Source of the DNA: Candidatus Gastranaerophilales bacterium | GTDB lineage: Bacteria; Cyanobacteriota; Vampirovibrionia; Gastranaerophilales; JANQFW01 | NCBI GenBank assembly: GCA_028277625.1 | Contig: JANQFW010000089.1 | Coordinates: 15,815 to 79,814, forward strand | Reading direction: 5' to 3' | Length of the DNA: 64,000 bases | Program-made: the position numbers and the translations under genes | Shown: piece after piece, positions 5,049-64,000 of the stretch | Position numbering within the stretch: position 1 is the stretch's first letter | Layout: every line of letters starts with the position of its first letter | Notes under the pieces: model-generated | Databases searched by the model: none | The model's input: the letters and a program-made list of their open reading frames with translations, nothing else | What the model was told of the DNA's origin: nothing

Positions 5049-5067
5049 TTAGGATAAGGATGTATTT

Positions 5068-5481: not shown

Positions 5482-5487
5482 TAAATT

Positions 5488-22475: not shown

Positions 22476-22482
22476 GATGAAA

Positions 22483-23595: not shown

Positions 23596-23701
23596 ATCCC
23601 ATTTTTCCCCATTAAAAGTTAAATTTTCTTCTTTATTATTTATTACTTTCTATATAATTAATAAAAATATATAAAATTAGTAGTAGTAGGTAATACCTTT
23701 T

Positions 23702-23870: not shown

Positions 23871-24367
23871 GAAAGATAAATCATTGTTTAATAAGCTTTT
23901 TTCTAATCAACCCTATTCATGATGGTTTTATTTATTCAAACATGTATTTATTCAGTATGATTAACATTCGAGGATACTCATACATGTAAATATTTATAAT
24001 TCCTTTATCTTGACTTGCTTAAACTTTGAGAATTATTGTCCTACATGTTTTTTTATTTTATTAGATACACAATTTTTTGTTCTTTCCATGTTTTTTATTT
24101 GTTGAAATCATGGAATTTAAATGATAATATTCTTCTCCTTTATTTAATTTGCTCAATATCCCTAATCTTTTAAGATACACATTTAAAGTTTTTACAAAGA
24201 TAACAGTCCCTAGTGTTCTTTGTACTTAGTCTGTTTTACATATCGGATTATACCATAGTTCACTGGCCTAAAAAGACTTATCTTAAGAAAACTTATCAAA
24301 TTGTTATATGAGAAATTATAAGGATTTATTATCCTCTATAAAGTTATTGTTATTTAAATTAGTCTTT

Positions 24368-24667
24368 TTATTGTTTAAAATCACTAGCTTTTACTGAGTG
24401 AACCCAGCGAGCAAAGTTTTGTTGTTCATAACTTAAGGCAAATTGATACAATGATTCTATCAGGCTTGCGCCTGATTTTGATTTACCTAAAAGCATGTAT
24501 GCACCAAATTTATTTTTTATAAGGGCTATTTCTTTATGAATGACCTTTTCTATATTGTTTTCAGGCTTTTTAGATAAAATATCTTTTATCCATCTTATCA
24601 ATATGATCACAGGAGGAATATCTGCTTGATAACTCCTTATATGTTTAGAAAATGCACTTATTATCAT
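24368..24667 (-). CDS. hypothetical protein
   Basis: 99-aa ORF. No family recognised. Confidence 0.4.
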   Translation of the reverse strand: MIISAFSKHIRSYQADIPPVIILIRWIKDILSKKPENNIEKVIHKEIALIKNKFGAYMLLGKSKSGASLIESLYQFALSYEQQNFARWVHSVKASDFKQ

Positions 24668-24744
24668 TGTTTTGATTTATTTTTTATTGAGTATATTACT
24701 CCTATAATACAATATTTTTTGCTTTTTTTTATTTTATACCTTAC

Positions 24745-26067: not shown

Positions 26068-26094
26068 AATGTACTCCCAAAAACTTATTTATTA

Positions 26095-27243
26095 CTATAA
26101 AACGACTAAATTATCCCTTAAAATGATTTCATCATAGTTTTTGTATCCCAAAATATCTTCAATTTCATTAGAGTGCTTTCCAATGATTTTTCTGCATTCC
26201 CAACTTGAATAATTGACAATGCCTTTAGCTATTTCTTTATTATTATTGTCTATGATTGTTATGACATCACCTTTTTCAAAGTTATTTTTAATTTCTGTCA
26301 TACCTGCAGATAGTAGGCTTGCATTTTTTTCCAGGAGTGCTTTTTGGGCCCCTTTATTAATTTTTATGTAGCCTGTTATATTGGTAGCATAGGCAATCCA
26401 TCTTTTTTTGCCAGATAAATTGTTTGCAGGTAAAAATATTGTACCTTTGGCTTTGCCGTTAAAGATGTCTTTTATTATATTGTTAGTTTTACCGTTTGCA
26501 ATAATTGCAACCCCGCCTGAATTTGTTACGACTCTTGCAGCTTCAAGTTTTGTTTTCATACCCCCTCTGCCTTTTTTTGAAGCTTCAAATCCTAAAGCTT
26601 CAATTTCTGGAGTTATCTGAGGAACTGTTGATATTACTTTTGCACTGGAATTTTTTCTTGGGTCATCGTTATAAAGCCCATCAACATCTGATAATATAAC
26701 TAGCATATCCGCGTCAATTTTATTCATAACCAGTGCTGAAAGCTTATCATTATCTCCAAAACAGACTTTTATCCCATCTGCTTGGTAGCATTCAAGTTCG
26801 TTTGTTGAAATGGTATCATTTTCATTAATTATCGGTATTACACCCATTTCTAAGAGGGTACCAACTGTATTTCTTAAGCTTAAGTATTTATGTCTGTTTG
26901 ATAGGTCATCACCGGTTATTAATATTTGAGCGGTTTGTATTGAGAATTTTTCAAATCCTTCTTGGTATAAATACATTAATTGGCTTTGACCTACGGCTGC
27001 GCAGGCTTGCTTTAGGGTTATAAGTTCAGGTTTTTCCTTTATTCCTAACTTTTTTGCACCCATACCTACGGCACCGGAGGTTACTATTATTATTTCTTTG
27101 TTTTGCTTTTTTAGCTCGGCTATTTCTTCTATAAAGGAGTAGACCCTTGATAGTGCTATATTTCCATCTTGGCGGGTTAGTACATTTGTTCCGAACTTAA
27201 ATATAATACGATTGCTGTTTTCAATATAATTTTGATAATCCAT
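26095..27243 (-). CDS. proB: glutamate 5-kinase with C-terminal PUA domain
   Basis: 382 aa. Amino-acid-kinase fold motifs (VTSGAVGMG, GDNDKLSA, SDVDGLY) plus a PUA-like tail. Confidence 0.95.
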   Translation of the reverse strand: MDYQNYIENSNRIIFKFGTNVLTRQDGNIALSRVYSFIEEIAELKKQNKEIIIVTSGAVGMGAKKLGIKEKPELITLKQACAAVGQSQLMYLYQEGFEKFSIQTAQILITGDDLSNRHKYLSLRNTVGTLLEMGVIPIINENDTISTNELECYQADGIKVCFGDNDKLSALVMNKIDADMLVILSDVDGLYNDDPRKNSSAKVISTVPQITPEIEALGFEASKKGRGGMKTKLEAARVVTNSGGVAIIANGKTNNIIKDIFNGKAKGTIFLPANNLSGKKRWIAYATNITGYIKINKGAQKALLEKNASLLSAGMTEIKNNFEKGDVITIIDNNNKEIAKGIVNYSSWECRKIIGKHSNEIEDILGYKNYDEIILRDNLVVL

Positions 27244-27409
27244 GTTTTTTCTTTTTATTTTTAGTAATTACTGTTTAATTTTACTAAAACCACGTCATCT
27301 ATTCTATTGAGTTTTATTAATTTTTTGTTTTTTAAAAATAAAGTTTAATATCTTGTAATGTTTTTATAAAAACAAGCAATTTATTGAAAAAAATATACTT
27401 TATAATATT

Positions 27410-27476
27410 GGGTAAAGGATACACTATAAAAGGTAGGTTAAAATCAAGTTTTAGATGCGAAAGCATCTTTTTTTTT
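27410..27476 (+). ncRNA. candidate small RNA, family 1 copy B (about 67 nt)
   Basis: GCAATT (27376-81)-N19-TATAAT (27401-06), 5' end GGGTAAAGG (27410-18), hairpin AGATGC-GAAA-GCATCT (27453-68) plus T9. Opposite strand to both flanking genes. Confidence 0.5.
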
Positions 27477-27506
27477 GTTTTTGTGATTTATTTATTGTGT
27501 TGATGC

Positions 27507-27743
27507 TCACTTGGGTATAGGATCATTACCTCCAGGATGTAAAGGGTGACATTTAATGATTCTTTTGAAACCCAAAAAAGAACCTTTAATTGCGCCATGT
27601 TGAATAATGGCTTGCTTTGTATACTCTGAACATGTTGGATAAAATCGGCATGTTTGGGGAGTAAATTTAGAGAAAAACTGATAAAATTTTATTAATTTTA
27701 TGAAAATAGTCTTTAAAATGTTTTTATTATTGGGTTTTGACAT
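27507..27743 (-). CDS. yidD: membrane protein insertion efficiency factor
   Basis: 78 aa with [10 protein letters not shown]...HGAIKG..LG.KRI.KCHP.HPGG.DP, the YidD signature. Confidence 0.9.
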
Positions 27744-28110
27744 GTTCTGAGTATCTTTTTAAGGCTTTGTTAATACAATTTTCAACAGCATTATAAACCT
27801 GATTAAAATCAGTATCAAGTGAATCGTTTCTGGCTAAGAATATAATACTATACCAGTAATTATTGTATTCTGGATGTTTTATTTTGTACTTTTTAAAAGC
27901 TTCTCTTATATGTCTTTTAATTCTATTGCGCTTTGTGGCTTTTTTATGAATTTTTTTACCTACAACAAATCCTACTTTTGTTGGGTATTGTGGATTTTTA
28001 TTTTTTTGTCCCACATATAGTATTAGTAAAGAGTTTGATACTGATCTCTTTATATTATATGTTTTTACAAATTCTATATTCTTTGTTAGTCTTTCGTCTT
28101 TTGGTAGCAT
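27727..28110 (-). CDS. rnpA: ribonuclease P protein component
   Basis: 127-aa basic protein with [17 protein letters not shown] (RNR motif). Lies between rpmH and yidD and overlaps yidD by 17 nt. Confidence 0.85.
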
Positions 28111-28137
28111 TTTATTTATTCTTACTTATAATTTATT

Positions 28138-28174
28138 AAAAAAAGATTTAAGGTCAGAACCTTAAATCTTTTTT
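28138..28174. terminator. symmetric hairpin between rpmH and rnpA (attenuator/terminator)
   Basis: 12-bp stem AAGATTTAAGGT / ACCTTAAATCTT (28142-53 / 28158-69), loop CAGA, flanked by an A-run and a T-run, so it is followed by U-runs on both strands. Confidence 0.5.
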
Positions 28175-28183
28175 TGTCAATAT

Positions 28184-28342
28184 TTTAAATTAGGCTCTTT
28201 TTTTGTACTGAATGCCTAGCTTGTGGCGTCCTTTTGCTCTTCTTCTTGCAATAACATTTTTACCGCCTGGTGTTGACATTCTTACTAAGAAGCCACTTTT
28301 GCGTTGTCTTTTTCTTTTAGTTCCTTCTAGGGTACGTTTCAT
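28184..28342 (-). CDS. rpmH: 50S ribosomal protein L34 (not in the ORF track, under 60 aa)
   Basis: Hand translation: [52 protein letters not shown]. The MKRT...KR....GF..RM.T..G..V...RR.KGR..L signature is present, and GAGGAG lies upstream. Confidence 0.9.
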
Positions 28343-28716
28343 TTTCTTTTCTCCTCTTATATTAAATTAAAGATTTTATAAGTTTTATATTACATTTCTT
28401 TAGGTTTTTTCTCATGATATCACTAAAATATAATATCAAAAAATAAATTACTGTAAATATTTTATAATCGGCTAGCATAAAAAGTTTTAAACACTATCTG
28501 GCATTTATTTTGGGCTATGTTTTTATTACTGATAGGCTGTACATTGGTTTAGTTATAACAGTATTAATCGTAATATCCTTAATATTTATATATTAAAGAT
28601 GTAAAGTGTGCGAGCATTGTAAAAGTTTTTTAAGTTTTTATTTGTTTTATATCAATAAAAACCATGTTTTTACTTCTATAACATGGGGAAAGTAAGATAA
28701 ATGGATTTAGGCGACT

Positions 28717-31533
28717 ATGCAATTGAATATTCAAACTAATCAAGTAACTAATTTAAAAAATCGTTTAGCTTTTGGGAGTGTACAACAGAATCCAACCATC
28801 GCAGCGCAGAGTTTTAATGTACCAGCTCCGGCAGCTTATCAGGCTCCACCGGTTGATTATCAGAAAGCGTTGGCATTACCAGGTGGACCGATTAAGAATG
28901 CAGTTAATCAATATAATGTGCAACTTCAAAGTGGAGTACCACAAGGCACTCAATATAAAGAGGTAAGGTTAAATAAGCTAGTGAGTTCTCAAGATCTTGA
29001 TGCCGGTCAGAAGGCATTTTATGAGAAGTATAAGCTGAATCCTGATTTTAAAACTTTAATAGTTAAAGAAGATTATAACTATGCTGATGATAAGCTTGAT
29101 GCATTTAGGCTTGTAGAAGTTAAATTTAGCAATGATTATGATGAATCTTTAAAAAATATATTTGCTAATAAGATGAATGGGCAAGTAAAACCTAGAGAAA
29201 GACAATTAGTTGATAAGTTATTAACTATTGCAAATCAAAATCCTGCATCTTTTGCTGATGATCAAGCTAAACTTAGTAAGCTTAGTTCATTAACTCCTAA
29301 TACTAAAACTTTATTAAAGTATAAAGTTAAAGAATTTATGGAAAAAGAAATAGTTCCCCAATCCATGAATAATCATTTTAGGGCAGAAGTTCTAAAGCAG
29401 CAATCATATAATCAAAATGCTGCCCTAATACAGAGTTGTTTTGATAAGCCTAATGCCTGGACTGCAAAGTTAGCGCCACAAGGACAAGAACCCGTAACTA
29501 CTAAAGCAAAAATCAAGAACGTGAAAAATCTTTGTGATAGGATTGCCAAAAACCCTGATGATGCAAATACAATGTTTGTAATGTTCTTTGATAATGTGCT
29601 AAAGACTAAAAAAGCAATGAAGGCTAACAAAATTGATGCTAATACAACCATAGAAGATTATTACAACAGTTTACCTGATAATTGGCACAGAAATAGAAGC
29701 TGGTATTATACATACGTTAATAATTTTGGAACTGATAAAAACGGAAAAGGTGATTTTAAGACATTCACCAAGCAATTGAACTATCTTGATAAATTGGGTA
29801 TTAAGAACATGTTAATACTCCCTCATTATGCATCTCCACAAGGTGATGCAGGATATGACATTTCTGATTATCATGCATCAAAAGAGTTGGGTGGAGAAAA
29901 GGAGTTTGGTAATTTCTTGAAGGAAGCAACAAAGCGTAAGTTCGGTTTGACAACAGATTTAGTATTTAATCATACTTCAACTGAGCATGAGTGGTTTAAG
30001 AAGGCACAAGCTGGTGATCCTAAGTACTTCCAGTACTTTTTGAAGTGTTCACCTGATTGGGCGAAGAAAGATTTAGATAAATCATTACATATGCGAAATG
30101 GCAACTTAATGCTAGAGCTTCCAGAGAAAGATAAAAATGGAAATACAGTTGTATCTAGTAAGAACTTAAGTCCATTATTCCCAGATGTTGATAAGTCTAT
30201 ATGGTTGGATAAGCCGGTTAAGGGGTTAAATAAAAACGTACTATTCTATAAGACTTTCTATCCATTCCAAGTTGATTTAGATTTACAGAATCCTGACGTT
30301 ATAAATGAACTATATGACATTATTGGTTCGGAAGTTGCAAAAGGTGTGGCCGGTAAGAGACTTGATGCGGCAGCATACTTTATTAAGCAACCGGGAACTG
30401 AAAGTTATAGTTTGCCGCAGACAGATGCATTACAGCAGCTTTCTGCATCATACATGAAACATTTACATCCTAAGACAATCATTATACCTGAAGTTCTAAA
30501 GGGTAATGGTAAAGGCGATATATTCTTTGACTTTAGGGATCAGGCTAAGTTAAGAGAAATGAGTTACTTACATACATCTGCTCCTTTCTGGGAGACTTGG
30601 GATAAAAATAAGGATGCCTTATTAAACCCTAATAATAAGCAAGTTCCATTGGTTATCTTTGACCACCATGATGAAATATACATGAACCAGTTTGGTAAAA
30701 ATCAAGATGCAATGGAGAAGTTCTTAACCTCATCATTCAAGACAACTAATAAGCATGGTCAGCCAAAAGAGGTTGTACATGCTGATATGTATAAAGGTGG
30801 TGCTGCTGCCGGTGGTAGGATGGCAACCTGCGTTAATGAAGATTTAAGGCGTATTACTCAGGCATTCTTTAACCAGTTCATGATCCCTGGTGCACCTGCT
30901 ATTTATTATGGTTCTGAAATTGGAGCTACTAATAATAGAGAAAATATGGAAGTTAGAAAAGTTGAGCAGTATCAAATACTTAAGAGACTTTTAGGCCCTG
31001 AAAAAGTAGGTGAGGATGAAAGTATTACTCTGGATAAGTGTGCTGACCCTCGTGAGCTACAGAGAGGACCAATTGATGCCGCTAAATTTGATAAGGCAGA
31101 TAAAAGTCATTATCCTGCTATAGATACTATTAAAGAATTAAATAAACTTAGAGAAGAAAGATCCGCTTTAAGGTCTTATAATATAGAAAAACTTCAAGGT
31201 AATGACGATACATTATTTGCTATGATTAAGTATCCTGAGCAGGAGGCTAAATTGAACGATGGCTCTATTGAAAAACCTTTGGTTACTGTATCTAACCTTA
31301 ATGATTCTGAAAAAGTTGTTAAGATTCCTGTGAAACAAATTCAAAAAGCAATGAATGCTAATGGTAACGTTTCGTTTAAAACTTTATTCAAACTGGATAA
31401 TGAAACTAAAGGCGATCAGGTCGCTGTTAGTGTGTCTGATAAGCAGGAGCAAACACTTATCAGTAAGTCTAATGACTTTATCTCAGTGAAGCTTCACCCT
31501 TATAGCTCATTAATTTTAGAGCCAACTGTATAA
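28717..31533 (+). CDS. GH13 alpha-amylase-family enzyme (TreS/amylosucrase-like) with about 340-aa N-terminal extension
   Basis: All four GH13 regions are seen: DLVFNHTS, GKRLDAAAY (nucleophile D), IIPEV (acid/base E), FDHHDE. The first about 340 aa have no recognisable family. Confidence 0.8.
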   Translation: MQLNIQTNQVTNLKNRLAFGSVQQNPTIAAQSFNVPAPAAYQAPPVDYQKALALPGGPIKNAVNQYNVQLQSGVPQGTQYKEVRLNKLVSSQDLDAGQKAFYEKYKLNPDFKTLIVKEDYNYADDKLDAFRLVEVKFSNDYDESLKNIFANKMNGQVKPRERQLVDKLLTIANQNPASFADDQAKLSKLSSLTPNTKTLLKYKVKEFMEKEIVPQSMNNHFRAEVLKQQSYNQNAALIQSCFDKPNAWTAKLAPQGQEPVTTKAKIKNVKNLCDRIAKNPDDANTMFVMFFDNVLKTKKAMKANKIDANTTIEDYYNSLPDNWHRNRSWYYTYVNNFGTDKNGKGDFKTFTKQLNYLDKLGIKNMLILPHYASPQGDAGYDISDYHASKELGGEKEFGNFLKEATKRKFGLTTDLVFNHTSTEHEWFKKAQAGDPKYFQYFLKCSPDWAKKDLDKSLHMRNGNLMLELPEKDKNGNTVVSSKNLSPLFPDVDKSIWLDKPVKGLNKNVLFYKTFYPFQVDLDLQNPDVINELYDIIGSEVAKGVAGKRLDAAAYFIKQPGTESYSLPQTDALQQLSASYMKHLHPKTIIIPEVLKGNGKGDIFFDFRDQAKLREMSYLHTSAPFWETWDKNKDALLNPNNKQVPLVIFDHHDEIYMNQFGKNQDAMEKFLTSSFKTTNKHGQPKEVVHADMYKGGAAAGGRMATCVNEDLRRITQAFFNQFMIPGAPAIYYGSEIGATNNRENMEVRKVEQYQILKRLLGPEKVGEDESITLDKCADPRELQRGPIDAAKFDKADKSHYPAIDTIKELNKLREERSALRSYNIEKLQGNDDTLFAMIKYPEQEAKLNDGSIEKPLVTVSNLNDSEKVVKIPVKQIQKAMNANGNVSFKTLFKLDNETKGDQVAVSVSDKQEQTLISKSNDFISVKLHPYSSLILEPTV

Positions 31534-31702
31534 ACTGAGTAATAAAAACTTTTTATTATGTATTAAACTCATGCGAGAATTTAAGTAGTAAAAGATGTAG
31601 AACCTTTTATTCCTTACTTCCTTTGGTGTGTATTAATAAAAAAATAAAAAACATTTAAAAAGAATGGCAATTTTTCTTATGTATATAACTTTATATATAT
31701 AA

Positions 31703-31842
31703 GATAGGTAAAACGTTAAGATAGAGTATAAGTAGTATAACAAAAGACTTTCAACCAATATGTAAACCTATATATTAACCTACACACTTGCTAAAATCTT
31801 TAAACCATTCTTCTTGTTTTTATTTAACAAGAAGTTTTTTTT
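31703..31842 (+). ncRNA. candidate small RNA, family 2 copy A (about 140 nt)
   Basis: GCAATT (31667-72)-N19-TATATA (31692-97). 21-nt core ACCTACACACTTGCTAAAATC (31778-98) is identical to the minus strand of 54734-54. Terminator CTTCTTGTT/AACAAGAAG (31810-34) plus T8. Confidence 0.5.
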
Positions 31843-32338
31843 GTAAAGAAAAAGTCCCTTTTTTTTATTATTTTAAAGTTTTTTGGACTTTAAAAACTTG
31901 ATATGCTATATCTGTAATTATTATATATTTTAACATGTTTTCTAATGTTTTATAGAATTTATAGAGGTTTGCTGCATGATTTTACTGTATTTATTAATTA
32001 AAATATTTAAAATTTAAATAATCCAGGATTTATTCTTTATGTATTTGATCCTTTGCGTTATAATAATTATTGGTTTTTCTACATGTTATATTTAAAGAAA
32101 AATAATAATAAAACATATATTATAAATATTAGTGTTTATAATATATAACATTATCGATAGCTAACTTAAAACTTGTAAAGTATTGCTGGTTAATATTTAA
32201 AGGTTTTGCTTAGCTTTTAAGGTTACGAGTCAAGCCTGTTTATGCACTTTTTTAGTAGTTTTTGTTTTTTAATATATAATGAAGGTTAGTGTGTGATTAT
32301 TAGGTAAATTTATAAAAAGATAATTAAGGGTAGTTTCA

Positions 32339-33034
32339 ATGGAATTAAATGAGATTATAGAAAAGTTTCAGGGGTATAAATTGTCCCGAGATAAATTAAC
32401 TCCTTATGAAAGCTGGGCTTTAAATTTCTTCCATGATAAGTCTCACGTATCAAATCCATTTTTGAATGTAACAATGCAGCTTGATATTTCTGAGGCTAGG
32501 AAAAATTATTTAGAAAATTATAAGCCTTTGACAGGTGCATCTTTTACTGCTTTTCTTACTTGGAATTTGATAAAATCATTGAAGAAGCAAGATTGCTTTA
32601 GTTATAGAAGGTTTAATGATGAGTGGTACAGGTTTGATAACTTGCCCGTTTATATTCCTGTCCTTGTAGGTAATGCATTTAGATTTCAGGAGTTTTTCCT
32701 GGAAGATGTAATGGAATCTAACTGGAAAGCATTTTCTTCTGCTTATACTGATAACATTGAAAGAGTAAGAAATAATTTGGATCAATTTAAGGTGATAAGT
32801 CCGATTATATTTAATTTGGCAACTCATATTGGTAACTTATCATATTTGAATTTTACTGGATTTACCCTGCATGGTGTGGATGCAACTGGTAGAAACTTGT
32901 TTTATTTTGGCAAGCGTACAGAACTTAACGATAAATGGAATCAACCGTTAAATGTAACTATAGATCATACCACTGCTGATCCTTATATTTTGAACTTGTT
33001 AATTGAGGATTTTACGCAAGAGTTGGTTAAATAA
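32339..33034 (+). CDS. CAT-like (chloramphenicol-acetyltransferase-fold) acyltransferase
   Basis: 231 aa. Length and C-terminal NVTIDHTTADPYILNLLIEDF (HxxxD catalytic motif in the CAT position) fit CatA-like O-acetyltransferases. Substrate unknown. Confidence 0.6.
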   Translation: MELNEIIEKFQGYKLSRDKLTPYESWALNFFHDKSHVSNPFLNVTMQLDISEARKNYLENYKPLTGASFTAFLTWNLIKSLKKQDCFSYRRFNDEWYRFDNLPVYIPVLVGNAFRFQEFFLEDVMESNWKAFSSAYTDNIERVRNNLDQFKVISPIIFNLATHIGNLSYLNFTGFTLHGVDATGRNLFYFGKRTELNDKWNQPLNVTIDHTTADPYILNLLIEDFTQELVK

Positions 33035-33062
33035 TCATTGCATTTTATAGATATATAAGAAT

Positions 33063-34178
33063 TTATTTTCTTTTTTTTCTTTTCTTCTTATTTTTTTTAA
33101 TTATTTTTTTTGCATTGTCTATGGATATTCTGGCAAGAGGCTTTCTGGTTTGGTTGTCATAAAATACTAGCCAGTGTTTTCTTCTTGGGTTGTCTACAGA
33201 GAATGACAGTTTGCCTTTAAGCCTGGAGTTTGGTGATATTTTTCTGAACCATAGATCTGTATTTTGAAAAGGCGAAGCATAGTAGACAGATTTATAGTCG
33301 TTTACCAGTGCCATATCAAAACTGCTAAAACTTTTTTCTGTGCTGTTATCTATATCTAGTTGTAAAGTTATTGTGTTTAATTCTCCAAAAGGATCTTTTT
33401 CTAGTTGGTAGTCTTTTATAAATACCTTTAAGCCTTCTAAAATATTTTCTTCTTCTTGCAAGGCCTCTTTTGCCATAACCGGTAGCTTTAATTCTTCAAC
33501 AATTTTAACTTTAATTTGATCTCCCGGAGCAAGTAAAACTTGTTTACCCTTTCTTGCTACTGACGCGGTTGCCCCAACTAGAGCTCCAACACCAGCTCCA
33601 CCTGCAAGTGTGTATCCGTTACTTGCAACTGCTGCACCTAGTCCAAGATGTTTTAATGCAAGAATTCCCCCAATAACTCCGCCTGCAACTGTAATTGCTG
33701 CATCTTCCAATACAACTTTTGCTGCTGACGAGACTGCATTGCGTTTGGTTGTCATTGAAGCTTCTATTGGTATTTGTCTACCATTTGGTGTAACTATATA
33801 ATCAAAATCAAGTCTTATTGATGCATCTCTTCCCAGCCTTTTAGAATTAGTAACTTTATTAACTGTGCCATGTGCTACTGAGCCTGAGGGGATAACTATG
33901 CCTTTTTTTAAGTTTAAGTCGTCAGTTATTTCTGCGTAGAACTCGTCTCCCTTTTCTGTGTAAGTTGTGCTTAGTACAGAGGAGACAGTCATTTTTAGGA
34001 CGGTTCCTTTTTTAACTTTTTCAACTTCACCAGTGAAGAGTTTATCCGGGGCTTTTTGATTTTCATTATATTGTATTCCACTACGAATTACAGGAGATTC
34101 AACTTCCTGTGCTATACATAGTAGACTTTGAGATATAAATATATTTAGAGCTAGCATAAATGTTAATATTTTTTTCAT
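33063..34178 (-). CDS. secreted protein: TrbI/VirB10-like beta-barrel pattern + glycine-zipper segment + C-terminal domain with poly-Lys tail
   Basis: Signal peptide. GTVLKMTVSSVLSTTYTEKGDEFYAEITDDL...IPSGSVAHGTV...RLGRDASIRLDFDYIVTPNGRQIPI follows the G-T-x-I...S...G-D...A-x-V...IP-x-GS...G...R...F..l..P.G pattern. Gly-zipper AGGVIGGILALKHLGLGAAVASNGYTLAGGAGVGALVGA. Confidence 0.5.
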   Translation of the reverse strand: MKKILTFMLALNIFISQSLLCIAQEVESPVIRSGIQYNENQKAPDKLFTGEVEKVKKGTVLKMTVSSVLSTTYTEKGDEFYAEITDDLNLKKGIVIPSGSVAHGTVNKVTNSKRLGRDASIRLDFDYIVTPNGRQIPIEASMTTKRNAVSSAAKVVLEDAAITVAGGVIGGILALKHLGLGAAVASNGYTLAGGAGVGALVGATASVARKGKQVLLAPGDQIKVKIVEELKLPVMAKEALQEEENILEGLKVFIKDYQLEKDPFGELNTITLQLDIDNSTEKSFSSFDMALVNDYKSVYYASPFQNTDLWFRKISPNSRLKGKLSFSVDNPRRKHWLVFYDNQTRKPLARISIDNAKKIIKKNKKKRKKRK

Positions 34179-34355
34179 AAGTCCCTGTAGTCCAGTTGTG
34201 TTATGTTTAAAATTATTTTTTTAATTATCTTGGCTATTATATTAAAGTAAGAACAATCTTTTCTTACTTTAATATAATAATTTAATAATGGAAATTAGTC
34301 ATCACTGATTCGGTTTAAAAAAAATAAAAAAACTGGCACGATAGATATTTTATTG

Positions 34356-34520
34356 TTAAACAGTGATTAATGATTTCAACATTCCTTCGCCTTTGAGAGT
34401 TATTGTGTTATTTTGTTGGTGGTCTTTGCTCTCAAAGATAATTTCTACTTGGTTTTCGATTTTATCCACAGAAACTTTTATCTTTTCTTCTTTTATATCT
34501 TTAATGATTTTCTTATTCAA
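34356..34520 (-). CDS. possible unannotated 54-aa ORF (TTG start)
   Basis: GGAGA lies 8 nt before the TTG at 34520. Translation: (M)NKKIIKDIKEEKIKVSVDKIENQVEIIFESKDHQQNNTITLKGEGMLKSLITV. Confidence 0.3.
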   Translation of the reverse strand: MNKKIIKDIKEEKIKVSVDKIENQVEIIFESKDHQQNNTITLKGEGMLKSLITV

Positions 34521-34772
34521 TATTGTGGTCTCCAATTATTAAAAGGAAATAAACTTTTAAAATTCTAACAATACTAATATAACCTATTTTAAAATTTTTT
34601 CAAGTCTAAACTTGAGAATATACAATTGAAATTGGAATAAAAAATTTTAAAAATGACCTTAATATAATAAAACCATTTGGTCGTAATAAATTTCATGATT
34701 TTATTATTTTTTTTACTTATTAACTGTGCATAGTCAACTTTATAACTGTGTGAAAGCTTTTGCTTTCAGTTG

Positions 34773-36899
34773 TTATGGATTTCGGCCTATAAGGAAATCA
34801 CATCCGTTAATTTTTACTCTTATGCTGTTTTCTTCATGTTTGCGTCCTGTCATTTGTTTAAGCCAGCCGACGTTTTCATATTCTAGGTTTACTTTACTTA
34901 TGTCTTTAAATAATTCAGATTCTCTGCCTAGCCCTCCAAGCATACAAGGTTCGATGCATTTAGGAATACTTCCATCTGTTTCCCTTATTAGGTTTTTTAA
35001 TATTTCTTCATTATTGTGGTTATCGAGTACAATTTTTATTGTTGGAATTCTTTCCGGATCATGTTTTGAGCGTTTTACTATTGCAATTGTATCATTAACG
35101 CATGTTTTAATATCATGTATTCGATCCTTGCATTTTCTTGCTTCTGCTTTTGCATCACTTCCAAGTTCAGAAAATCTTAAGTTGGATGTTGATAGTTTTG
35201 CTCTTAATTTGCCAATATTTTCAATTATAGAATCTTTGTTAGGGTTTCCTTCTATCAGTTGCTCCAGCATGTCAGTTGTAAACCCTAAAGAGCCTTCAAT
35301 AACTTCGGATTCTTGTGATTTACTTATTGCTTTTTCTAGGTGGGAGAGCTTTATGCTGCTTAAGCTTATGTCGGCTATTTGACCTCTGAAATTATTTAAT
35401 ATGTTATCAATAAGTCCTTGAACTTCAGCTTTTTCGCTTGGAGAGAAGTTAAAATGTTTGCCAACATTAGCCCCTACATAGTTAAGGTTATTACTTAAGA
35501 AGTTATTTAACACACCTGAAGCATAGTTTTCTTCAGCGAATTGAAGGCTTATGTTTTTTCCTGCATTACAGCTACCTCTGCTGATATAGTCTAAATATAG
35601 CCCAACTTCTTTAGGATCTGTTAGCTCTGTTTTTCTCCTTATTTTTAAATATTCAGCTGATCCTCTTTTAGGAAGCTTTAGCATGTTTTTTATGAAATTA
35701 AATACCTTGCCTCCTGTGAGTCTGTCAAAAGAATTTTTTAGGTAGTCTGCAGCGATACTAAATGTCGCAGTTGTGGATTCTAAGTACTCTCCTGCGATAG
35801 ATCTACATGTTTCCATATTTTCTCTAGAGCCTAGTTGCTTTGACTTGCCCATAAGAAATCCTGCTGCCACAGTTGTTGCTGCCCCTGCAGTTATTAGTGC
35901 TGCAGCTATAGTTTTTTTTGCGCTTACTACTGAAGCTTGAACAAATTGTGAGGTATTATTAAAATATGCCGGGTTTAATCCCAGAGCGGCCGGGTCGCTT
36001 GGTTGAGGTTGCGTTGGCATGGTTTGATTGTTAGGTATATTACCCTGGTTTATCATGGGGTTATTAATAGGCTCCTGGGGGTATAGAGATTGGGATGGAG
36101 GTGGTGGTAGATCAGCTGGTTTTCCAGGAGGGGTAGGGTTTTCGTTAGAGCCACTTTTTTCGAATGAATTTAAGTAATCAGATTCTGGATAATTACCTGG
36201 TACAGGAGCAAATAGGGGGGCTTTAAATAATGAATCTGTTTGTCTGTGGCGTCTATTTTGTTTTTTCTCTGGAGGGGGAAGAAAGTCTTCATCATCAAGG
36301 TTCATATCGTTATTTGGAGGATATCCGCCAGGTATATTAGGCGGTGGTTGCATGTTTGGAGGTAATCCCATTGGAGGGGCTGGCTGCATGCCTGGTGGCA
36401 TATCTTGTGGATTGTTAAAATCGAATGGTGATGTTGCGCCTATAGGTGGTATCGGTTGGGTAAATGTGGGTTGTGAATTGTTAAATTGTTGAGGTTGTTG
36501 AGGGGCATTTTTTTTCTCATTTTCTTTTTCTTTTCTTGCAAGAATTGCCGAGGCTATATCCATATTTTTGCCAATTTCTTCTGGGGGAGATTTTACTTCT
36601 TTGTCTTTATCTCTTGTGTTTATTTGAGGTGGTAATTGATTTTGAAGGTGGCTCATAACATCAGTTCGTTTCACCCCTTGCTTTGGTTCAGGGAGGGGTG
36701 TTTTGGGATTGTATGGTGTTATTTGTTGTACTTGCATATCCTGAGGCAAGGGGATTGGTAGTTGAGGTGGGGCAAGAGGTTGTTGTATATCGCTATTCCC
36801 AAACTTACTGTGTTTTTTTTCAGTTAGTTTGGGTTTATTATTGCCTGTTTGTTGATTGTTGCCTTTTGTTTTTTTAGTAGGCTTGTAATTTATCAGCAT
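34773..36899 (-). CDS. large proline/glutamine-rich membrane protein, function unknown
   Basis: 708 aa: about 330-aa low-complexity P/Q/N-rich N-terminal half, one hydrophobic segment (AAALITAGAATTVAAGFLMG), and a about 350-aa C-terminal globular region with no recognised family. The plus-strand ORF 34726-35382 is its shadow. Confidence 0.6.
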   Translation of the reverse strand: MLINYKPTKKTKGNNQQTGNNKPKLTEKKHSKFGNSDIQQPLAPPQLPIPLPQDMQVQQITPYNPKTPLPEPKQGVKRTDVMSHLQNQLPPQINTRDKDKEVKSPPEEIGKNMDIASAILARKEKENEKKNAPQQPQQFNNSQPTFTQPIPPIGATSPFDFNNPQDMPPGMQPAPPMGLPPNMQPPPNIPGGYPPNNDMNLDDEDFLPPPEKKQNRRHRQTDSLFKAPLFAPVPGNYPESDYLNSFEKSGSNENPTPPGKPADLPPPPSQSLYPQEPINNPMINQGNIPNNQTMPTQPQPSDPAALGLNPAYFNNTSQFVQASVVSAKKTIAAALITAGAATTVAAGFLMGKSKQLGSRENMETCRSIAGEYLESTTATFSIAADYLKNSFDRLTGGKVFNFIKNMLKLPKRGSAEYLKIRRKTELTDPKEVGLYLDYISRGSCNAGKNISLQFAEENYASGVLNNFLSNNLNYVGANVGKHFNFSPSEKAEVQGLIDNILNNFRGQIADISLSSIKLSHLEKAISKSQESEVIEGSLGFTTDMLEQLIEGNPNKDSIIENIGKLRAKLSTSNLRFSELGSDAKAEARKCKDRIHDIKTCVNDTIAIVKRSKHDPERIPTIKIVLDNHNNEEILKNLIRETDGSIPKCIEPCMLGGLGRESELFKDISKVNLEYENVGWLKQMTGRKHEENSIRVKINGCDFLIGRNP

Positions 36900-37164
36900 G
36901 TTAATTTACTTCTTTTTTATTCTAAGTTAAAAAATGCTTTCATAAAATATAAATACAAACATAGATATATTTGCTAGCTAACTGGCAAAACAGGGTTAAT
37001 ATTTAAATATGTTTACAATGAGTGGAACTTAATTTGGCTGTGACTAGTCAATTTAAATTATAAGTAAAAAAGATGTATCGTTTTTTAATTTTTTTTGAAT
37101 AATAGATATGTTTTGGATAAAATATTAAACAATAAGATGAATAAATAGAAGAGGTTTAATAATA

Positions 37165-38271
37165 GTGGATTTTGTTGCAATAACAGTTGAATTTTTAAAA
37201 TTTCTGGCTAACTTAACCGGAAGTTACGGACTGGGAATAGTACTGTTTACTTTAGTTATTAGGGCTGCGATGTGGCCACTAAGTTTTTCTCAGCAGAAAA
37301 GTATGAAAAAAATGCAGGAGCTAGCTCCTAAGTTGAAACAGCTACAAGCAAGATATAAAAGTGATCCTCAGGCTATGCAAATGAAAATGATGGAGTTTTA
37401 TAAAGAACATAAGTTTAATCCGCTTGGTGGTTGCGTTCCATTAATGGTACAAATGCCTATATTTATTTTGCTTTATGCGGCTTTGATAAGTCCTCAGTTT
37501 ATGGATTTATCTGGTAATTCATCTTTTATGTTTATAAATAAACTAAGTTCAACTTTAAGAGATAGAGCTGGTGTTGTTGGTGATGCTACGTTTGCTGTAG
37601 AAAGACAAGATCGGTTTGTTCTTGATAAGCATGTTAAGGTTTATTTGAAAGACGGGAAAACTCTTGATAATGCAATAATACTTAATGAAAAGAAAGCTAT
37701 AGATAAGCCTGAGCAGATTATTCCAGGACAAACTGTTAAGTTTGGTATTAGCTTAAGCAATTTGGATTTACCTTATGAAGAGTTAGGTAAAGTCGAAAAA
37801 GCTGATATTACTGTAATAAACGAAAATACCAAGGAAATTGAGCATATAACTTTTAAAGTTAAAGATTCTAAATTGTCTGCTGATATAAAAACTGAAAAAG
37901 TTGAAACAAAGTTTAATTATGATGTTTTAACTTTAATTATATTGTTCGCGGTAACTATGATGATTACTCAAAAGATAATGAGTAAAATGTCTAATACTGC
38001 AGCTATGGATCCTATGCAAAAGAACATGCAAGAAAAAATGGCTAAAATTATGCCTGTGGCAATAGTTGTTCCTTTGGTATTTATCCCAATACCTGCGGGT
38101 GTGTTCTTATACTTTGTGGTTAGCAATGTCTTCCAGATAGCGCAAACAGTTATAATAAATAAACAGTTGGATGCTGCCAGTAAGGCAAGTGGTCCTGACG
38201 TTATACAAGCAGAAACTGTTGAAAAAAAAACTCTAAATAATGATAATCATCAAAAAATTAGTCATAAATAG
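37165..38271 (+). CDS. yidC: membrane protein insertase YidC/Oxa1 family, with about 130-aa insertion
   Basis: GLGIVLFTLVIRAAMWPLS..Q.KSM.KMQ.L.P....L..RYK.D.......M.EFYKEHK.NP..GC.P...Q.PIF..LY is the YidC core. GTG start. Confidence 0.9.
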   Translation: MDFVAITVEFLKFLANLTGSYGLGIVLFTLVIRAAMWPLSFSQQKSMKKMQELAPKLKQLQARYKSDPQAMQMKMMEFYKEHKFNPLGGCVPLMVQMPIFILLYAALISPQFMDLSGNSSFMFINKLSSTLRDRAGVVGDATFAVERQDRFVLDKHVKVYLKDGKTLDNAIILNEKKAIDKPEQIIPGQTVKFGISLSNLDLPYEELGKVEKADITVINENTKEIEHITFKVKDSKLSADIKTEKVETKFNYDVLTLIILFAVTMMITQKIMSKMSNTAAMDPMQKNMQEKMAKIMPVAIVVPLVFIPIPAGVFLYFVVSNVFQIAQTVIINKQLDAASKASGPDVIQAETVEKKTLNNDNHQKISHK

Positions 38272-38273
38272 TT

Positions 38274-39659
38274 ATGAATTACATTATTAATGATACAATA
38301 GCAGCAATTGCAACGCCTCTTGGTACAGGAGGTGTTGCTGTTATTAGGATAAGTGGTGAAAAAGTTTTTGATATTATTTCAGAAATTTTTTCTTTGAGCT
38401 TAAAGAATAAAAAATTACCTGACTTTGAGGCTAATAAAATATATTATGGTTGGATAAAAGATAATGATAATCTGATTGATCAAGTATTATTATTATTATT
38501 TAGAGGGCCTAAGAGTTTTACTGGCGAAGATGTTATAGAAATTCATTGCCATGGTGGGATTAATGTAACTAAGAATATTCTGCAACTTTGTTTGAATGCT
38601 GGTGCAAGATCGGCAACGCGTGGAGAATTTAGTAAACGAGCTTTTTTGAATGGGAAGATGGGCTTGACTGAGGCTGAGGCTATACTAGATATTATTCATT
38701 CGCGCACAGATAAGTTTTCTCAGATTTCTGCTTATAATTTATCAGGGAAGTTATCTTTTTATATAAAAGAGATAAAAAGTGAGGTTATAAACCTTTTGTC
38801 AGAGGTTATAGCTGCTCTTGATTTTTCTGAGGAGGTTGATGAGCCTGAATATAGCTATATAGTAGAGCGTATAAATGATATTGTTGTTAAGATTAACAAT
38901 GTTTTAAGGTCTTCTAATAATTCTAACTTAATGAGGCAGGGTTTGAAAGTGGCCATAGCTGGCAAGCCTAATGTTGGTAAATCTTCGTTATTTAACACTT
39001 TATTGGATATACAGAGGGCCATTGTTACTGATATTGCTGGGACTACTCGTGACATTATTCAAGAATCTTTAGATGTGGATGGTATTCCTGTTACATTGAT
39101 AGATACTGCTGGTATTCGAGAATTGGAAAATGAAACACATAGTGATCAAATTGAATCTATTGGTATAAATATTGCTAAAGATCATATACAAAGCGCGGAT
39201 ATAGTTTTATTTTTGTATGACTTGACTAAAGGTATGCAGGAGCAAGATATTGATATTTTTTCTGAAATAAAAGATAAGCCAGTAATAAAAGTGGGGTCTA
39301 AGGTTGATCTGATTGATAACCTTGATAAATTGGTGCAGCAAGATGGGCATGATTGTATGATATCAACAAAAACCCGTGAGGGAATTGAGACTGTGAAACA
39401 AAAAATAAAAGAACTAGTATTATCTGCAAATGATATTGATAATAGTGAGTATGCTACAAATATTAGGCATCAGGAGTGTTTATTTAATGCTAAAAAATCA
39501 TTATTACTGGCTGTTGATTCTTGCCAAAACTATGCACCTCAGGATTTTGTATCTATAGATTTGAAGGCTGCACTGTTGTCTCTTGATGAGATAACAGGAG
39601 AGGTTGTTACTGAAGAAATTTTAGACAATATTTTTTCTAATTTCTGTATTGGTAAGTAG
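38274..39659 (+). CDS. mnmE: tRNA modification GTPase MnmE
   Basis: 461 aa. G-domain motifs GKPNVGKSSLFN and DTAGIR, and the characteristic C-terminal CIGK. Confidence 0.95.
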   Translation: MNYIINDTIAAIATPLGTGGVAVIRISGEKVFDIISEIFSLSLKNKKLPDFEANKIYYGWIKDNDNLIDQVLLLLFRGPKSFTGEDVIEIHCHGGINVTKNILQLCLNAGARSATRGEFSKRAFLNGKMGLTEAEAILDIIHSRTDKFSQISAYNLSGKLSFYIKEIKSEVINLLSEVIAALDFSEEVDEPEYSYIVERINDIVVKINNVLRSSNNSNLMRQGLKVAIAGKPNVGKSSLFNTLLDIQRAIVTDIAGTTRDIIQESLDVDGIPVTLIDTAGIRELENETHSDQIESIGINIAKDHIQSADIVLFLYDLTKGMQEQDIDIFSEIKDKPVIKVGSKVDLIDNLDKLVQQDGHDCMISTKTREGIETVKQKIKELVLSANDIDNSEYATNIRHQECLFNAKKSLLLAVDSCQNYAPQDFVSIDLKAALLSLDEITGEVVTEEILDNIFSNFCIGK

Positions 39660-45028: not shown

Positions 45029-45116
45029 AAAAAAGGTTCTTTCAGAACCCCATCGTTAGCACATTACCAAATTTTCATTAAATTTTTTTACTTTACCTTA
45101 CCTTTTTTTTTTACCC
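45029..45116 (-). ncRNA. candidate small RNA / leader, family 1 copy C (about 88 nt)
   Basis: Minus strand: GCATTT (45145-50)-N19-TATAAT (45120-25), 5' end GGGTAAAAAAAAAAGG, hairpin GGTTC-TGAAA-GAACC (45035-49) plus T6. Ends about 65 nt upstream of, and co-directional with, rnhC. Confidence 0.45.
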
Positions 45117-45193
45117 AATATTATAAAGTATTTATTTTATTAAAAAATGCGTATTTTTATAAAAATATTAATAAAAATAAATAAAAAATTTTT

Positions 45194-54692: not shown

Positions 54693-54797
54693 AAAAAAAA
54701 CTTCTTGTTGGGTGAAACAAGAAGGGAATTAAGGATTTTAGCAAGTGTGTAGGTAGTATATATAATATGGTTTTATTGGAGTTTTGTTGTATCTTAT
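54693..54797 (-). ncRNA. candidate small RNA, family 2 copy B (about 100 nt)
   Basis: Minus strand: GCAATT (54826-31)-N19-TATATA (54801-06), 21-nt core (54734-54) identical to copy A, terminator CTTCTTGTT/AACAAGAAG (54701-24) plus T8 (54693-700). Confidence 0.5.
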
Positions 54798-54981
54798 GTA
54801 TATATAAAGTTATTTACTTTAAAAAAATTGCTTAATTTAAAAAAAAATTTTGATTAGTGCTTTCTAATTTTTAATAAAAAAATGGTGATGTATTTAACAA
54901 CATCACCTGTTTGGTATTTTCCGCCTTTGTGTTTGCCTTATGGTCTCTTCTTCCAATATTTAATTAAATATTTTTAGATAA

Positions 54982-62316: not shown

Positions 62317-62400
62317 GGCAATTTAGAAATTGTTTTTGTTTTTATAATATTGTGAGATAAGTGAGAGCCAAAGTGGGTATAATTATTATTTAATTTGTGT
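62317..62400 (+). repeat. duplicated promoter/leader block, copy 1
   Basis: GGCAATTTAGAAATTGTTTTTGTTTTTATAATATTGTGAGATAAGTGAGAG...GGGTATAATT aligns with 63116-63200. Contains GCAATT (62318-23)-N19-TATAAT (62343-48). Confidence 0.6.
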
Positions 62401-62505
62401 TCAAAAAATGTAAAATTTAAATAATTATCCAACTGTAACATTTTTAAGCTTTTATTTATTTTTTGTAAAGATGAGGTAGTTTTAAAAGGTGTAGGAGGTA
62501 CACAA

Positions 62506-62916
62506 ATGGCAGTATCAGGTATGAATTCTGGACGTACTTACTCTGGAGAGGTTATGGATTTTTTAAAAGGAGGATTTAAGGATAAAAAAGCTTTGTTTGG
62601 TCAGGCGAAAGATTTTATAGCGTTAAAAGATACAGATAAAAATGGAACGATTTCAAAGGAGGAAGCCTTATTTAAAACTAAAGGCAAGATGCAACATGAT
62701 ATAGAAAAAATGTTTAAAAGAGTTGACCTGGATAAAGATGGTGAGCTTGATTATAAAGAGCTGGCATCCTTCAAGTTTTCGGCAGATGTAGATAGAAATA
62801 ATAATGTTACTAATAAAGAAGCGACAAATGCTTATGATGTTTCGATTGATGGTAAAGAAGGCTTTGTTAAAAATATATTAAGAAGTGCTTATACTCTTTT
62901 GGATTTAGGCTCTTAG
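62506..62916 (+). CDS. EF-hand calcium-binding protein
   Basis: Three canonical 12-residue loops: DTDKNGTISKEE, DLDKDGELDYKE, DVDRNNNVTNKE. GTAGGAGG RBS. Confidence 0.75.
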   Translation: MAVSGMNSGRTYSGEVMDFLKGGFKDKKALFGQAKDFIALKDTDKNGTISKEEALFKTKGKMQHDIEKMFKRVDLDKDGELDYKELASFKFSADVDRNNNVTNKEATNAYDVSIDGKEGFVKNILRSAYTLLDLGS

Positions 62917-63115: not shown

Positions 63116-63200
63116 GGCAATTTAGAAGTTTATTTTGTTTTTATAATATTGTAAGGTAGTGAGGATTAAATATGGTATAATTGGTATTCAGCTTGTGTAT
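63116..63200 (+). repeat. duplicated promoter/leader block, copy 2
   Basis: GGCAATTTAGAAGTTTATTTTGTTTTTATAATATTGTAAGGTAGTGAGG...TGGTATAATT. Contains GCAATT (63117-22)-N19-TATAAT (63142-47). A weak AAGCTT/AAGCTT hairpin plus T8 follows at 63231-63259. Confidence 0.6.
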
Positions 63201-63319
63201 TAAAGAAAATAAATAATAAGTAAAGTTAGTAAGCTTGAAATATTTTTAAGCTTTTTTTTATTAATTTTGCATATATTTGACTTTTAAAAAGTGAATCTTA
63301 ATAGATAGGAGTTTTTAGT

Positions 63320-64000
63320 ATGTTAACTGGTATTTCTTTGGATAAAGGTAGGATACAAAAAGCATTCAAGGTCGTTGAAAATAATTTTGATTATTTTGAC
63401 ACAGTAGGAGGAGGAGAAGAGGATAGTGTATTTAATCTTTCTAGTATAGCAGTTGCAGCAATAGATGAAAATGCAGATAAAAGTATTAAAGAAGCTGCAA
63501 TGATTCTCTTAAGTAATCAGTACTTTTTAAACTCTTTCCTGAATGAAAAAAAAGAAAAATATCCTATAAAAGAAGATGTAGAGGGGATGTTAGACTTATA
63601 TTTGACTGATTGGTATTTTAATATTTCAGATGAAGAGGACGGTAAGCGAGACGGTAAAATTCATAAGTCTGTTATGCCCAAGAATCCATTTAATAGTGCT
63701 ACTTCTAACGATGATGTCTACAAGGGGGGGGGCTTTTCTCAAGAAATGCTTGATGATATAAGCAAGGATGATGATTATATAACAAAAGATGAATTGTTAA
63801 TGTTTGAAAAATCATTGAGAGGGTTTAGTAAACATGACATCGAAAATTTTGATAAGTCGTTCTCTAAACATATTAGTGATGGAAAAGTGGAAAGTTTAAT
63901 AGGATATAACCATTTTGCAACGGCACTAGTTGCTCTTAATGATAAGTCTATAGGTAAAAAAATTATTAAGGAATCTATAAAAAGAGGTGAAGGAGGATTT
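63320..64000 (+). CDS. hypothetical acidic protein with degenerate EF-hand-like loops (partial, runs off the right edge)
   Basis: ATG at 63320 after a GGAG RBS. I read 227 codons to the window end with no stop. Absent from the ORF track because no stop is reached. Contains a G9 run at 63724-63732. Confidence 0.5.
   Translation, partial: MLTGISLDKGRIQKAFKVVENNFDYFDTVGGGEEDSVFNLSSIAVAAIDENADKSIKEAAMILLSNQYFLNSFLNEKKEKYPIKEDVEGMLDLYLTDWYFNISDEEDGKRDGKIHKSVMPKNPFNSATSNDDVYKGGGFSQEMLDDISKDDDYITKDELLMFEKSLRGFSKHDIENFDKSFSKHISDGKVESLIGYNHFATALVALNDKSIGKKIIKESIKRGEGGF

Follow-up and report, generated by a model that had tools for sequence, protein, structure and literature searches.

A predicted two-box promoter class at candidate small RNA and leader loci of Gastranaerophilales

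Introduction

Which protein recognizes the pair of short sequence boxes at positions 62318-62348 (forward strand) of a 64 kb stretch of Gastranaerophilales DNA? The stretch, termed the window hereafter, is part of contig JANQFW010000089.1 (assembly GCA_028277625.1) and carries about 55 genes, including flagellar and chemotaxis genes. An initial annotation had proposed that one architecture, GCA(A/C/T)TT and TATA(A/T)(T/A) separated by 19 nt, occurs at seven loci in the window. These loci were described as five small RNA (sRNA) candidates and the leaders of two EF-hand genes, and a common regulator or alternative sigma factor was suggested to join them in a small regulon.

The host is a gut- or groundwater-type non-photosynthetic cyanobacterium. 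The best homologues of the FolE2 protein encoded in the window come from Candidatus Gastranaerophilales or Melainabacteria, the closest (96% identity) being found on a contig of GCA_028280605.1. Gastranaerophilales and Melainabacteria are known almost only from metagenome-assembled genomes (MAGs), and a search of full-text literature returned nothing relevant on their promoters, sigma factors or small RNAs. Our analyses indicate that the seven sites are best described as predicted promoters of a genuine, lineage-specific, discrete and factor-dependent class. Both this promoter class and the associated sRNA families appear to be previously undescribed, on evidence that is purely computational.

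Results

Seven matches with a single spacing in the window

A search of the window for GCAHTT-N19-TATAWW gave exactly seven matches. Every box coordinate given in the initial annotation proved correct, as did the 19 nt spacer that had been claimed for each site (7 of 7). Family A comprises promoters A1 (3258-3288, forward strand; GCACTT-N19-TATAAT), A2 (27376-27406, forward strand; GCAATT-N19-TATAAT) and A3 (45120-45150, reverse strand; GCATTT-N19-TATAAT). The two promoters of family B, B1 (31667-31697, forward strand) and B2 (54801-54831, reverse strand), both read GCAATT-N19-TATATA. Family C consists of C1, which is the flagged site at 62318-62348 (GGGCAATTTAGAAATTG...TTTTTATAAT), and C2 (63117-63147; TGGCAATTTAGAAGTT...TTTTTATAAT), both on the forward strand. 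The hexamer at -10 is TATAAT at five of the seven sites and TATATA at the other two. The sequence ACTTTATA is present at five sites, and TTTTTATAAT at both C sites.

The initial annotation had considered that the pattern might occur at the frequency expected by chance in shuffled intergenic sequence. When this check was run on the window, that outcome was not seen. Specifically, dinucleotide shuffles of the intergenic DNA alone (n = 2000; 12.8 kb of the window, 24% GC) gave a mean of 0.18 matches compared with the seven observed, with P(>=3) = 0.001 and P(>=7) = 0. Shuffles of the whole window (n = 100) gave a mean of 0.89 matches and a maximum of 3. Because the sites fall into three paralogous families, they are best counted as about three independent observations; the excess survives counting as three events (P about 0.001, intergenic shuffles), with the caveat that the pattern was defined only after the sites had been seen.

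The spacing is equally distinctive. With the same two boxes, the window holds seven matches at a spacing of 19 and between zero and four at each of the other spacings from 14 to 24. Furthermore, a scan of the window with a weight matrix that was weighted by family scored the seven sites at 23-36 bits and the next best site at 12.9 bits, leaving no intermediate sites. A C-box-like sequence, GCATTTTAGAAGTTTA at 4095-4110, was considered as an eighth site and judged to be a chance occurrence; it has no -10 element at N19, and its GCA is replaced by GTA in both relatives. Another candidate, at 46343 on the reverse strand, lies within a coding open reading frame (ORF) and was discarded as well.

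Small RNA and leader families downstream of the module

To assign the families, the sequence around each site, from 80 nt upstream to 330 nt downstream, was read and aligned. All five sRNA candidates of the initial annotation close with an intrinsic-terminator hairpin followed by a T-run, consistent with their proposed nature. Family A RNAs are 65-90 nt long, purine-rich and predicted to start with GGGUAAAGGAAACAC, with repeated AAGGUA-type motifs and a GC-rich hairpin preceding the T-run. Copy 1 (3292-3361, forward strand; about 70 nt) is predicted to start with GGGUAAAGGAAACAC and is purine-rich with a terminator hairpin and T-run, copy 2 (27410-27476, forward strand; about 67 nt) carries a terminator, and copy 3 (45029-45116, reverse strand; about 88 nt) has its terminator at 45051-45033. 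Family B RNAs are about 100-140 nt long and share the seed CCUACACACUUGC and a conserved single-stranded block, CCUACACACUUGCUAAAAUC, directly 5' of the terminator. Copy 1 lies at 31704-31842 (forward strand), and copy 2 (54693-54794, reverse strand) has its terminator at 54724-54701. The promoters of families A and B can be aligned along 45 nt, with 80% identity between A2 and B2.

Family C differs in kind, as each site precedes a leader of about 150 nt that contains a weak hairpin and a T-run 5' of a protein-coding gene. The C1 leader (62355-62505, forward strand) carries these features at about 62436-62470 and would act as an attenuator-type leader or else be a small RNA. Its paralogue, the C2 leader (63154-63319, forward strand), is 73% identical to it and has an AAGCTT...AAGCTT hairpin followed by T8. 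Rfam returned no matches at the seven loci, neither above gathering score nor at E <= 10, and this includes Yfr1 and Yfr2; with ARAGORN, neither the window nor the relatives yielded a tRNA.

Several further features of these RNAs are recorded here. Both C leaders contain a second -10-like element 35 nt 3' of the main -10 element, namely GGGTATAAT at 62375-62383 in C1 and TGGTATAAT at 63173-63181 in C2. The C2 element carries TGn, and the C1 element reads TATAAC in the close relative L001. These elements may form a weak tandem promoter; that they are the main C promoter is unlikely, given the TATAAC in L001 and no -35 element at a workable distance. The C1-orthologous leader of L001 (5530-5720) has an insertion of about 190 nt relative to the window, and it still closes with a hairpin (ACACTT..AAGTGT) and T-run before the EF-hand gene. 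Locus L017 carries two tandem family A genes on its reverse strand (1420-1547 and 1600-1727) at a distance of 180 bp, both behind a GCA-N19-TATAAT promoter of their own. At 94 nt, this variant is longer; it contains GGAAACGGAAAC and AAAGGUAAAAGGUA repeats and has an orthologous single copy in L013.

Potential pairing among the transcripts was noted by eye. Over 6-7 bp, GUAGGU(A) of family A could pair with (U)ACCUAC, which forms the 5' part of the conserved family B block; the sites are 27430-27440 (A2) against 54745-54755 (B2, reverse strand) and 31775-31785 (B1). This resembles the cross-talk of Yfr1 and Yfr2, but the match is too short for significance and is mismatched in A1. Likewise, the Shine-Dalgarno region of the EF-hand gene (GGUGUAGGAGGUA, 62488-62500) is complementary to the B2 seed UACUACCUACAC over 7 + 4 bp that span the ribosome-binding site. 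The pairing of the seed CCUACAC with GUGUAGG at about 62488-62494 is probably due to chance: the counterpart in L001 reads GGCAUAGGAG, so that the target becomes GCAUAGG and the pairing is not conserved, and RNAduplex was uninformative. The idea that family A RNAs serve as a CsrA sponge found no support. Sponge RNAs of the Csr/Rsm type display many GGA motifs in hairpin loops and have a GacA-type upstream activating sequence. Family A RNAs contain only 0-2 GGA motifs, along with 2-5 AGG/GGU motifs in largely unstructured purine-rich sequence, and neither CsrA nor FliW had a Pfam match among the window ORFs tested.

Conservation of the box and its distance in Gastranaerophilales relatives

Further family A copies were retrieved from one genome per species with the pattern CTTTATAATANTGGGTAAA, which covers the -10 element and the 5' end of the RNA and excludes the GCA box. 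Besides unrelated chance matches, this retrieval gave eight further copies in two Gastranaerophilales MAGs. The sequence GCA[ACT]TTT is present at the identical distance in all eight new copies, and thus in all 11 family A copies, while the spacer bases vary. At least five copies, all with the box, reside in GCA_028280605.1, compared with three in the window. The surroundings of A1 and A3 show that some of these copies are syntenic orthologues with about 80-83% nucleotide identity; A1 corresponds to copies in L015 and L028, which keep the box at the same distance, and A3 to the copy in L029.

For families B and C, the conserved sequence starts exactly at the GCA box. The close relative L001 retains the B2 promoter, at the start of its sequence, and the C1 promoter (5456-5486), and lacks C2. 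A family-weighted logo of 17 sites from three Gastranaerophilales genomes has information only in GCAaTTT and in cTTTATAat followed by aTtG, and none in the spacer or 5' of the GCA box. Because the box is kept at orthologous loci while spacer and flanks diverge, selection evidently acts on the box itself, and the pattern is not explained by mere recent copying. We conclude that the box and its spacing are, as judged from these alignments, under purifying selection, both between species and between downstream units that are unrelated to one another.

A fourth family in rumen contigs

A metagenome scan with a strict version of the module yielded 75 matches. Nearly all are chance or coding matches, and one large cluster corresponds to a conserved coding region. 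The scan revealed no copies of families A, B or C, which indicates that the genus of the window is not represented in that collection. The sole informative loci were in rumen contigs, where the module was found 5' of a gene for a 265-278 aa protein of unknown function that lies in a prepilin-like gene cluster. This arrangement, termed family D, has no homologue in the window. Orthologues of the family D protein fetched by protein similarity (86, 76 and 55% amino acid identity) all keep GGGCAATTTT at N19 from TATAAT, TATATC or TATATT, although their spacers, flanks and 5' untranslated regions have diverged. The conservation in family D indicates that the promoter class reaches beyond the genus of the window and beyond sRNAs.

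The rumen contigs probably derive from Melainabacteria. They encode a CHASE2-GGDEF protein that shares 42% identity, along its entire length, with its counterpart in L002 and L006, two more distant relatives that were retrieved through FolE2 proteins 72-73% identical to that of the window. A strict match in a human-gut contig with a related prepilin-like gene (L101, 2394-2428) is uncertain; it lies between purA and an M16-type peptidase gene, with the GCA box within the purA terminator loop, and no more than about 9 nt separate the -10 element from the annotated start codon.

Comparison of the module with established promoter elements

The -10 hexamers TATAAT and TATATA conform to the canonical sigma-70 element at all seven sites. 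No TTGACA-like -35 element accompanies them; the best match is two of six positions at any spacing of 16-19, and most sites match at zero or one. An extended -10 TGn is absent from all seven sites, which have CT or TT at that position. The spacer of 19 bp, found at the seven sites and in all relatives, falls within the 19-20 bp range of MerR-type promoters. Among the spacers, an inverted repeat of at least 6 nt occurs in C1 only (CAATTT-AG-AAATTG).

Signatures of other systems were likewise missing. At the seven sites we found neither the sigma-54 element GG-N10-GC (TGGCAC-N5-TTGCW), which has two loose matches elsewhere in the window, nor the sigma-28/FliA element TAAA-N15-GCCGATAA. No NtcA- or CRP-type palindrome (GTA-N8-TAC or TGTGA-N6-TCACA) lies near -41.5, and the single GTA-N8-TAC, in A1 only, is off position. 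The CGRE1 palindrome (GTTA/G-N13-14-TAAC) matches neither the promoter itself nor the 30 nt that precede the box. Moreover, no second half-site, dyad or direct repeat is common to the families in the spacer or the 30 nt upstream.

Canonical-looking promoters exist elsewhere in the window, specifically TTTACA-N16-TATTAT at rpmH, TTGACT-N17-TATAAT at 4301 and TTGAAA-N16-TGT-TATAAT at 10749 (reverse strand), and the intergenic DNA of these genomes shows hardly any enrichment of canonical TTGNNN-N17-TATAAT. The presence of such promoters, together with the gap in weight-matrix scores, suggests that the GCA class is a discrete minority class and not the general promoter form.

Genes downstream of the C leaders

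The initial annotation had assigned EF-hand proteins to both C leaders and had linked the sRNAs to calcium binding. The first assignment holds: the gene at 62506-62916 (forward strand) encodes a 136 aa protein with Pfam EF-hand_1/5/6/7 matches and a PROSITE-type loop, DLDKDGELDYKEL. The second does not, as gene 2 (63320-64000 on the forward strand, running past the end of the window) encodes a protein of 309 aa, its full length being taken from L007, in which no EF-hand is detectable with Pfam or PROSITE. The proposed regulon of sRNAs and calcium-binding proteins is therefore overstated and not supported, since the link comes down to one gene and the C2 copy is absent in L001. The calcium theme is weakened further by the probably related rumen contigs, where the same promoter precedes a non-EF-hand protein in a prepilin-like cluster.

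Gene 2 contains a run of nine G residues at 63724-63732 (VYKGGGFSQ) in a genome of about 30% GC. The run is identical in L007 and L008 and is interrupted in L001 (GGGGGGTGG). It is possibly a slipped-strand phase-variation tract.

Genomic setting

The region 21333-39659 resembles the neighbourhood of a replication origin, with a cumulative GC-skew minimum at about 26-28 kb. It holds the pairs recF (21333-22529) and dnaN (22483-23595), rnpA (27727-28110) and rpmH (28190-28342), all on the reverse strand, and yidC (37165-38271) and mnmE (38274-39659) on the forward strand. A 770 bp intergenic gap (23595-24367) lies 5' of dnaN, and no dnaA was seen in the window.

A gene for a methyl-accepting chemotaxis protein (1503-3224) lies 5' of A1 and is absent from both relatives, which points to an insertion in the window genome or a loss in the others; in L015 and L028, a Trp/Tyr-tRNA synthetase gene directly abuts the A1 orthologue. 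The intergenic stretch 4023-4200, including GTTTTGTAATATATTTCAGGGTAATTTAC and AAACTTTTTTCTAATGAAAAAAGATGATT, is unusually well conserved in all three genomes. It precedes a 66 aa ORF (4198-4398) and two receiver-domain genes (4458-5481) and could be an unrecognized regulatory region or RNA.

Discussion

Of the initial proposal that a common regulator or alternative sigma factor governs the seven loci, the architectural part stands, in that the module is real, discrete and conserved and functions, if it does, with neither a -35 element nor TGn. The co-regulation part is an inference, and we consider that the seven units are probably switched on together by one protein. The proposal is reasonable and gains strength from the comparison of species. 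A dedicated trans-acting factor that reads the GCA box is likely. More specifically, the box may serve as the -35 element for a sigma factor devoted to it, whether an alternative one or a second primary-like one; this idea is plausible without being probable. We put forward with still more reserve a Gastranaerophilales code, GCAHTTT-N15-YTTTATAAT-ATTG with invariant 19 bp spacing, that would be read by a sigma factor or a monomeric activator and would serve a regulon dominated by the A and B sRNAs.

In the mechanism that we favour, a sigma-70-family holoenzyme would open the DNA at a near-perfect -10 region, (C/T)TTTATAAT(ATTG), after recognition of an asymmetric 7 bp element, GCA(A/C/T)TTT, held rigidly 19 bp 5' of the -10 hexamer (about -37 to -31). 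With a dedicated sigma factor, region 4 would contact GCAHTTT and region 2 would contact TTTATAAT. The A sRNAs, the B sRNAs, the C leaders and one rumen protein gene, from what are probably related organisms, would then constitute one co-regulated set. We infer a transcription start about 7 nt after TATAAT, a single reader protein, and a sigma factor in preference to an activator. This preference has three sources. An asymmetric box that has no partner half-site fits a -35 element better than the site of a dimeric transcription factor, the spacing is invariant across four families, and the -10 flanks are conserved alongside. The clean gap in weight-matrix scores argues against a general housekeeping promoter.

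A number of observations weigh against this reading. A perfect TATAAT characterizes the promoters of sigma factors of groups 1 and 2, which normally read TTGACA at -35. Known alternative sigma factors have different -10 elements, which favours an activator. No candidate gene for a sigma factor or regulator was recognized among the window ORFs scanned with Pfam, and the more distant relatives L002 and L006 lack a site in 28 kb. Since the seven sites descend from three families of paralogues and the promoters of A can be aligned with those of B, the similarity is partly inherited. Conservation of the -10 element in family A arises by construction, since the retrieval pattern included it. Similarly, the first family D matches were found with the promoter pattern itself, leaving only L108 and L112 as unbiased ones. 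The family B copy of L001 has TTTATA at N19 and TATATA at N21. Finally, the canonical-looking promoters cited for comparison rest on pattern matches only, and the starts, the factor and the co-regulation are all predictions from the DNA sequence.

The same facts can be arranged in other ways. In a class II-type scheme, a primary (group 1 or 2) sigma factor would read TATAAT and a transcription factor bound to GCAHTTT would replace the -35 contact; the protein could be a monomeric AraC/MarA-like activator or a response regulator with a degenerate second half-site. A perfect sigma-A-type -10 element with no -35 element and no TGn is the textbook layout of an activator-dependent promoter, and the GCA box lies across the -35 position, always equally far from the -10 element. 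Promoters of this 'type 2' kind are common in cyanobacteria, those of NtcA being one example. The Yfr2 sRNAs provide a precedent in which a conserved element is paired with a GntR-family regulator (PMC6191309). However, only 7 bp are conserved across families, neither the spacer nor the 30 nt upstream contains a partner in the form of a dyad or direct repeat, and the signatures of NtcA, CGRE1 and MerR operators are absent. The -10 flanks (TTT upstream and ATTG downstream) are co-conserved, which an activator would not require. We regard an activator as somewhat unlikely.

Improbable in our estimate is an inherited, strong constitutive cassette that has spread along with duplicating sRNA genes and leaders and is served by the housekeeping holoenzyme and no dedicated factor, with the GCA box acting as a lineage-typical non-canonical -35 element or an UP-like element. 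The descent of the sites from three paralogous families agrees with this scheme, as do the 80% alignment of A2 and B2 over 45 nt and the recurrence of the A1 spacer TTGTCTAAAAAA in the family D promoter of L047, which suggests common descent. Near-optimal promoters are also frequent at sRNA genes, and the canonical form is scarcely enriched in the intergenic DNA. In contrast, the score gap is clean, with no intermediate site in 64 kb and about 55 genes, and rpmH, the sole ribosomal-protein gene present, has a TTTACA-N16-TATTAT-type upstream region instead. The box is also kept at orthologous loci despite the divergence of spacer and flanks, even at 55% amino acid identity, although selection on the box would still be compatible with a housekeeping reader. 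An artefact of chance or of AT-rich intergenic composition is effectively refuted. The pattern is indeed short, degenerate, AT-rich and defined after the sites were seen, and even a stricter 19-base version gives dozens of unrelated metagenome matches, mostly in coding regions. Nevertheless, the shuffles, the spacing control and the weight-matrix gap are all contrary, and the boxes are conserved across species and families.

If the favoured reading of a dedicated GCA box reader is true, no regulon and no sRNA family would have been defined before these in the uncultured Gastranaerophilales, and the purine-rich A and pyrimidine-seed B sRNAs may cross-talk in the manner of Yfr1 and Yfr2. The two-box promoter offers a handle for genome-wide regulon prediction and a bait for identifying the regulator. 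The candidate sRNAs belong to a lineage that forms a bridge from the photosynthetic cyanobacteria to other bacteria. Furthermore, a rigid 19 bp spacing with no -35 hexamer is a natural case that is informative on the recruitment of RNA polymerase.

Several known systems share part of this architecture. MerR promoters have 19-20 bp spacers, a TTGACA-like -35 element and a dyad operator within the spacer. The GCA class has a comparable 19 bp distance from box to -10 element, which is suboptimal for sigma-70, but its -35 match reaches at most two of six positions, its spacer is not conserved, and a dyad is present only in C1. In cyanobacterial class II promoters of NtcA, GTA-N8-TAC is followed after about 22 nt by TAN3T; class II promoters of the pho-box or MarA type are also comparable. 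Like these, the GCA class combines a good -10 element and no -35 element with a box that overlaps the -35 position at a fixed distance; unlike them, it has a single 7 bp box and no positioned GTA-N8-TAC, palindrome or direct repeat.

Sets of sRNAs that depend on an alternative sigma factor are exemplified by the sigma-E-dependent MicA, RybB and MicL and by the sigma-54/LuxO-dependent Qrr1-5. The GCA class resembles them in joining several sRNA genes and few protein genes under one non-housekeeping promoter type with rigid box spacing. The sigma factors of these sets use non-TATAAT -10 elements and have known consensus sequences, and the sigma-54 and sigma-28 consensus sequences, the two that were compared, are absent here. 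Bacteroidetes primary-sigma promoters, with TTTG at -33 and TAnnTTTG at -7 about 19-21 bp apart, provide a precedent for long box spacing and for a lineage-specific promoter code. Seven of the eight positions of TAnnTTTG are matched by TAATATTG, an extended downstream element present in families A, C and D, although the host belongs to a different phylum. In contrast to the Bacteroidetes form, the GCA class has an invariant GCA that has no counterpart there, lacks a conserved G after TTT, and is a minority rather than a general class.

The closest functional analogue is the Yfr2 system, a multicopy family of cyanobacterial sRNAs whose promoter element CGRE1 is bound by a GntR-family regulator (PMC6191309), identified in marine picocyanobacteria as the GntR-type PMM1637/PlmA (PMC6191309, PMC6778093). 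The palindromic CGRE1 (GTTA/G...TAAC) measures 21-22 bp and has its start at -55 to -57, whereas the GCA box is asymmetric, 7 bp long and located at -37 to -31. Unlike the hosts of Yfr2, the host of the window is a non-photosynthetic melainabacterium, and its RNAs have no Rfam match to Yfr1 or Yfr2. Family A nevertheless shares with Yfr2 its multicopy nature, short length, terminator-ended transcripts, cyanobacterial phylum and paralogues with a common conserved promoter element. Moreover, the partner sRNAs Yfr1 and Yfr10 carry complementary conserved motifs, of which the GUAGGU of family A and the ACCUAC of family B would be a weak analogue.

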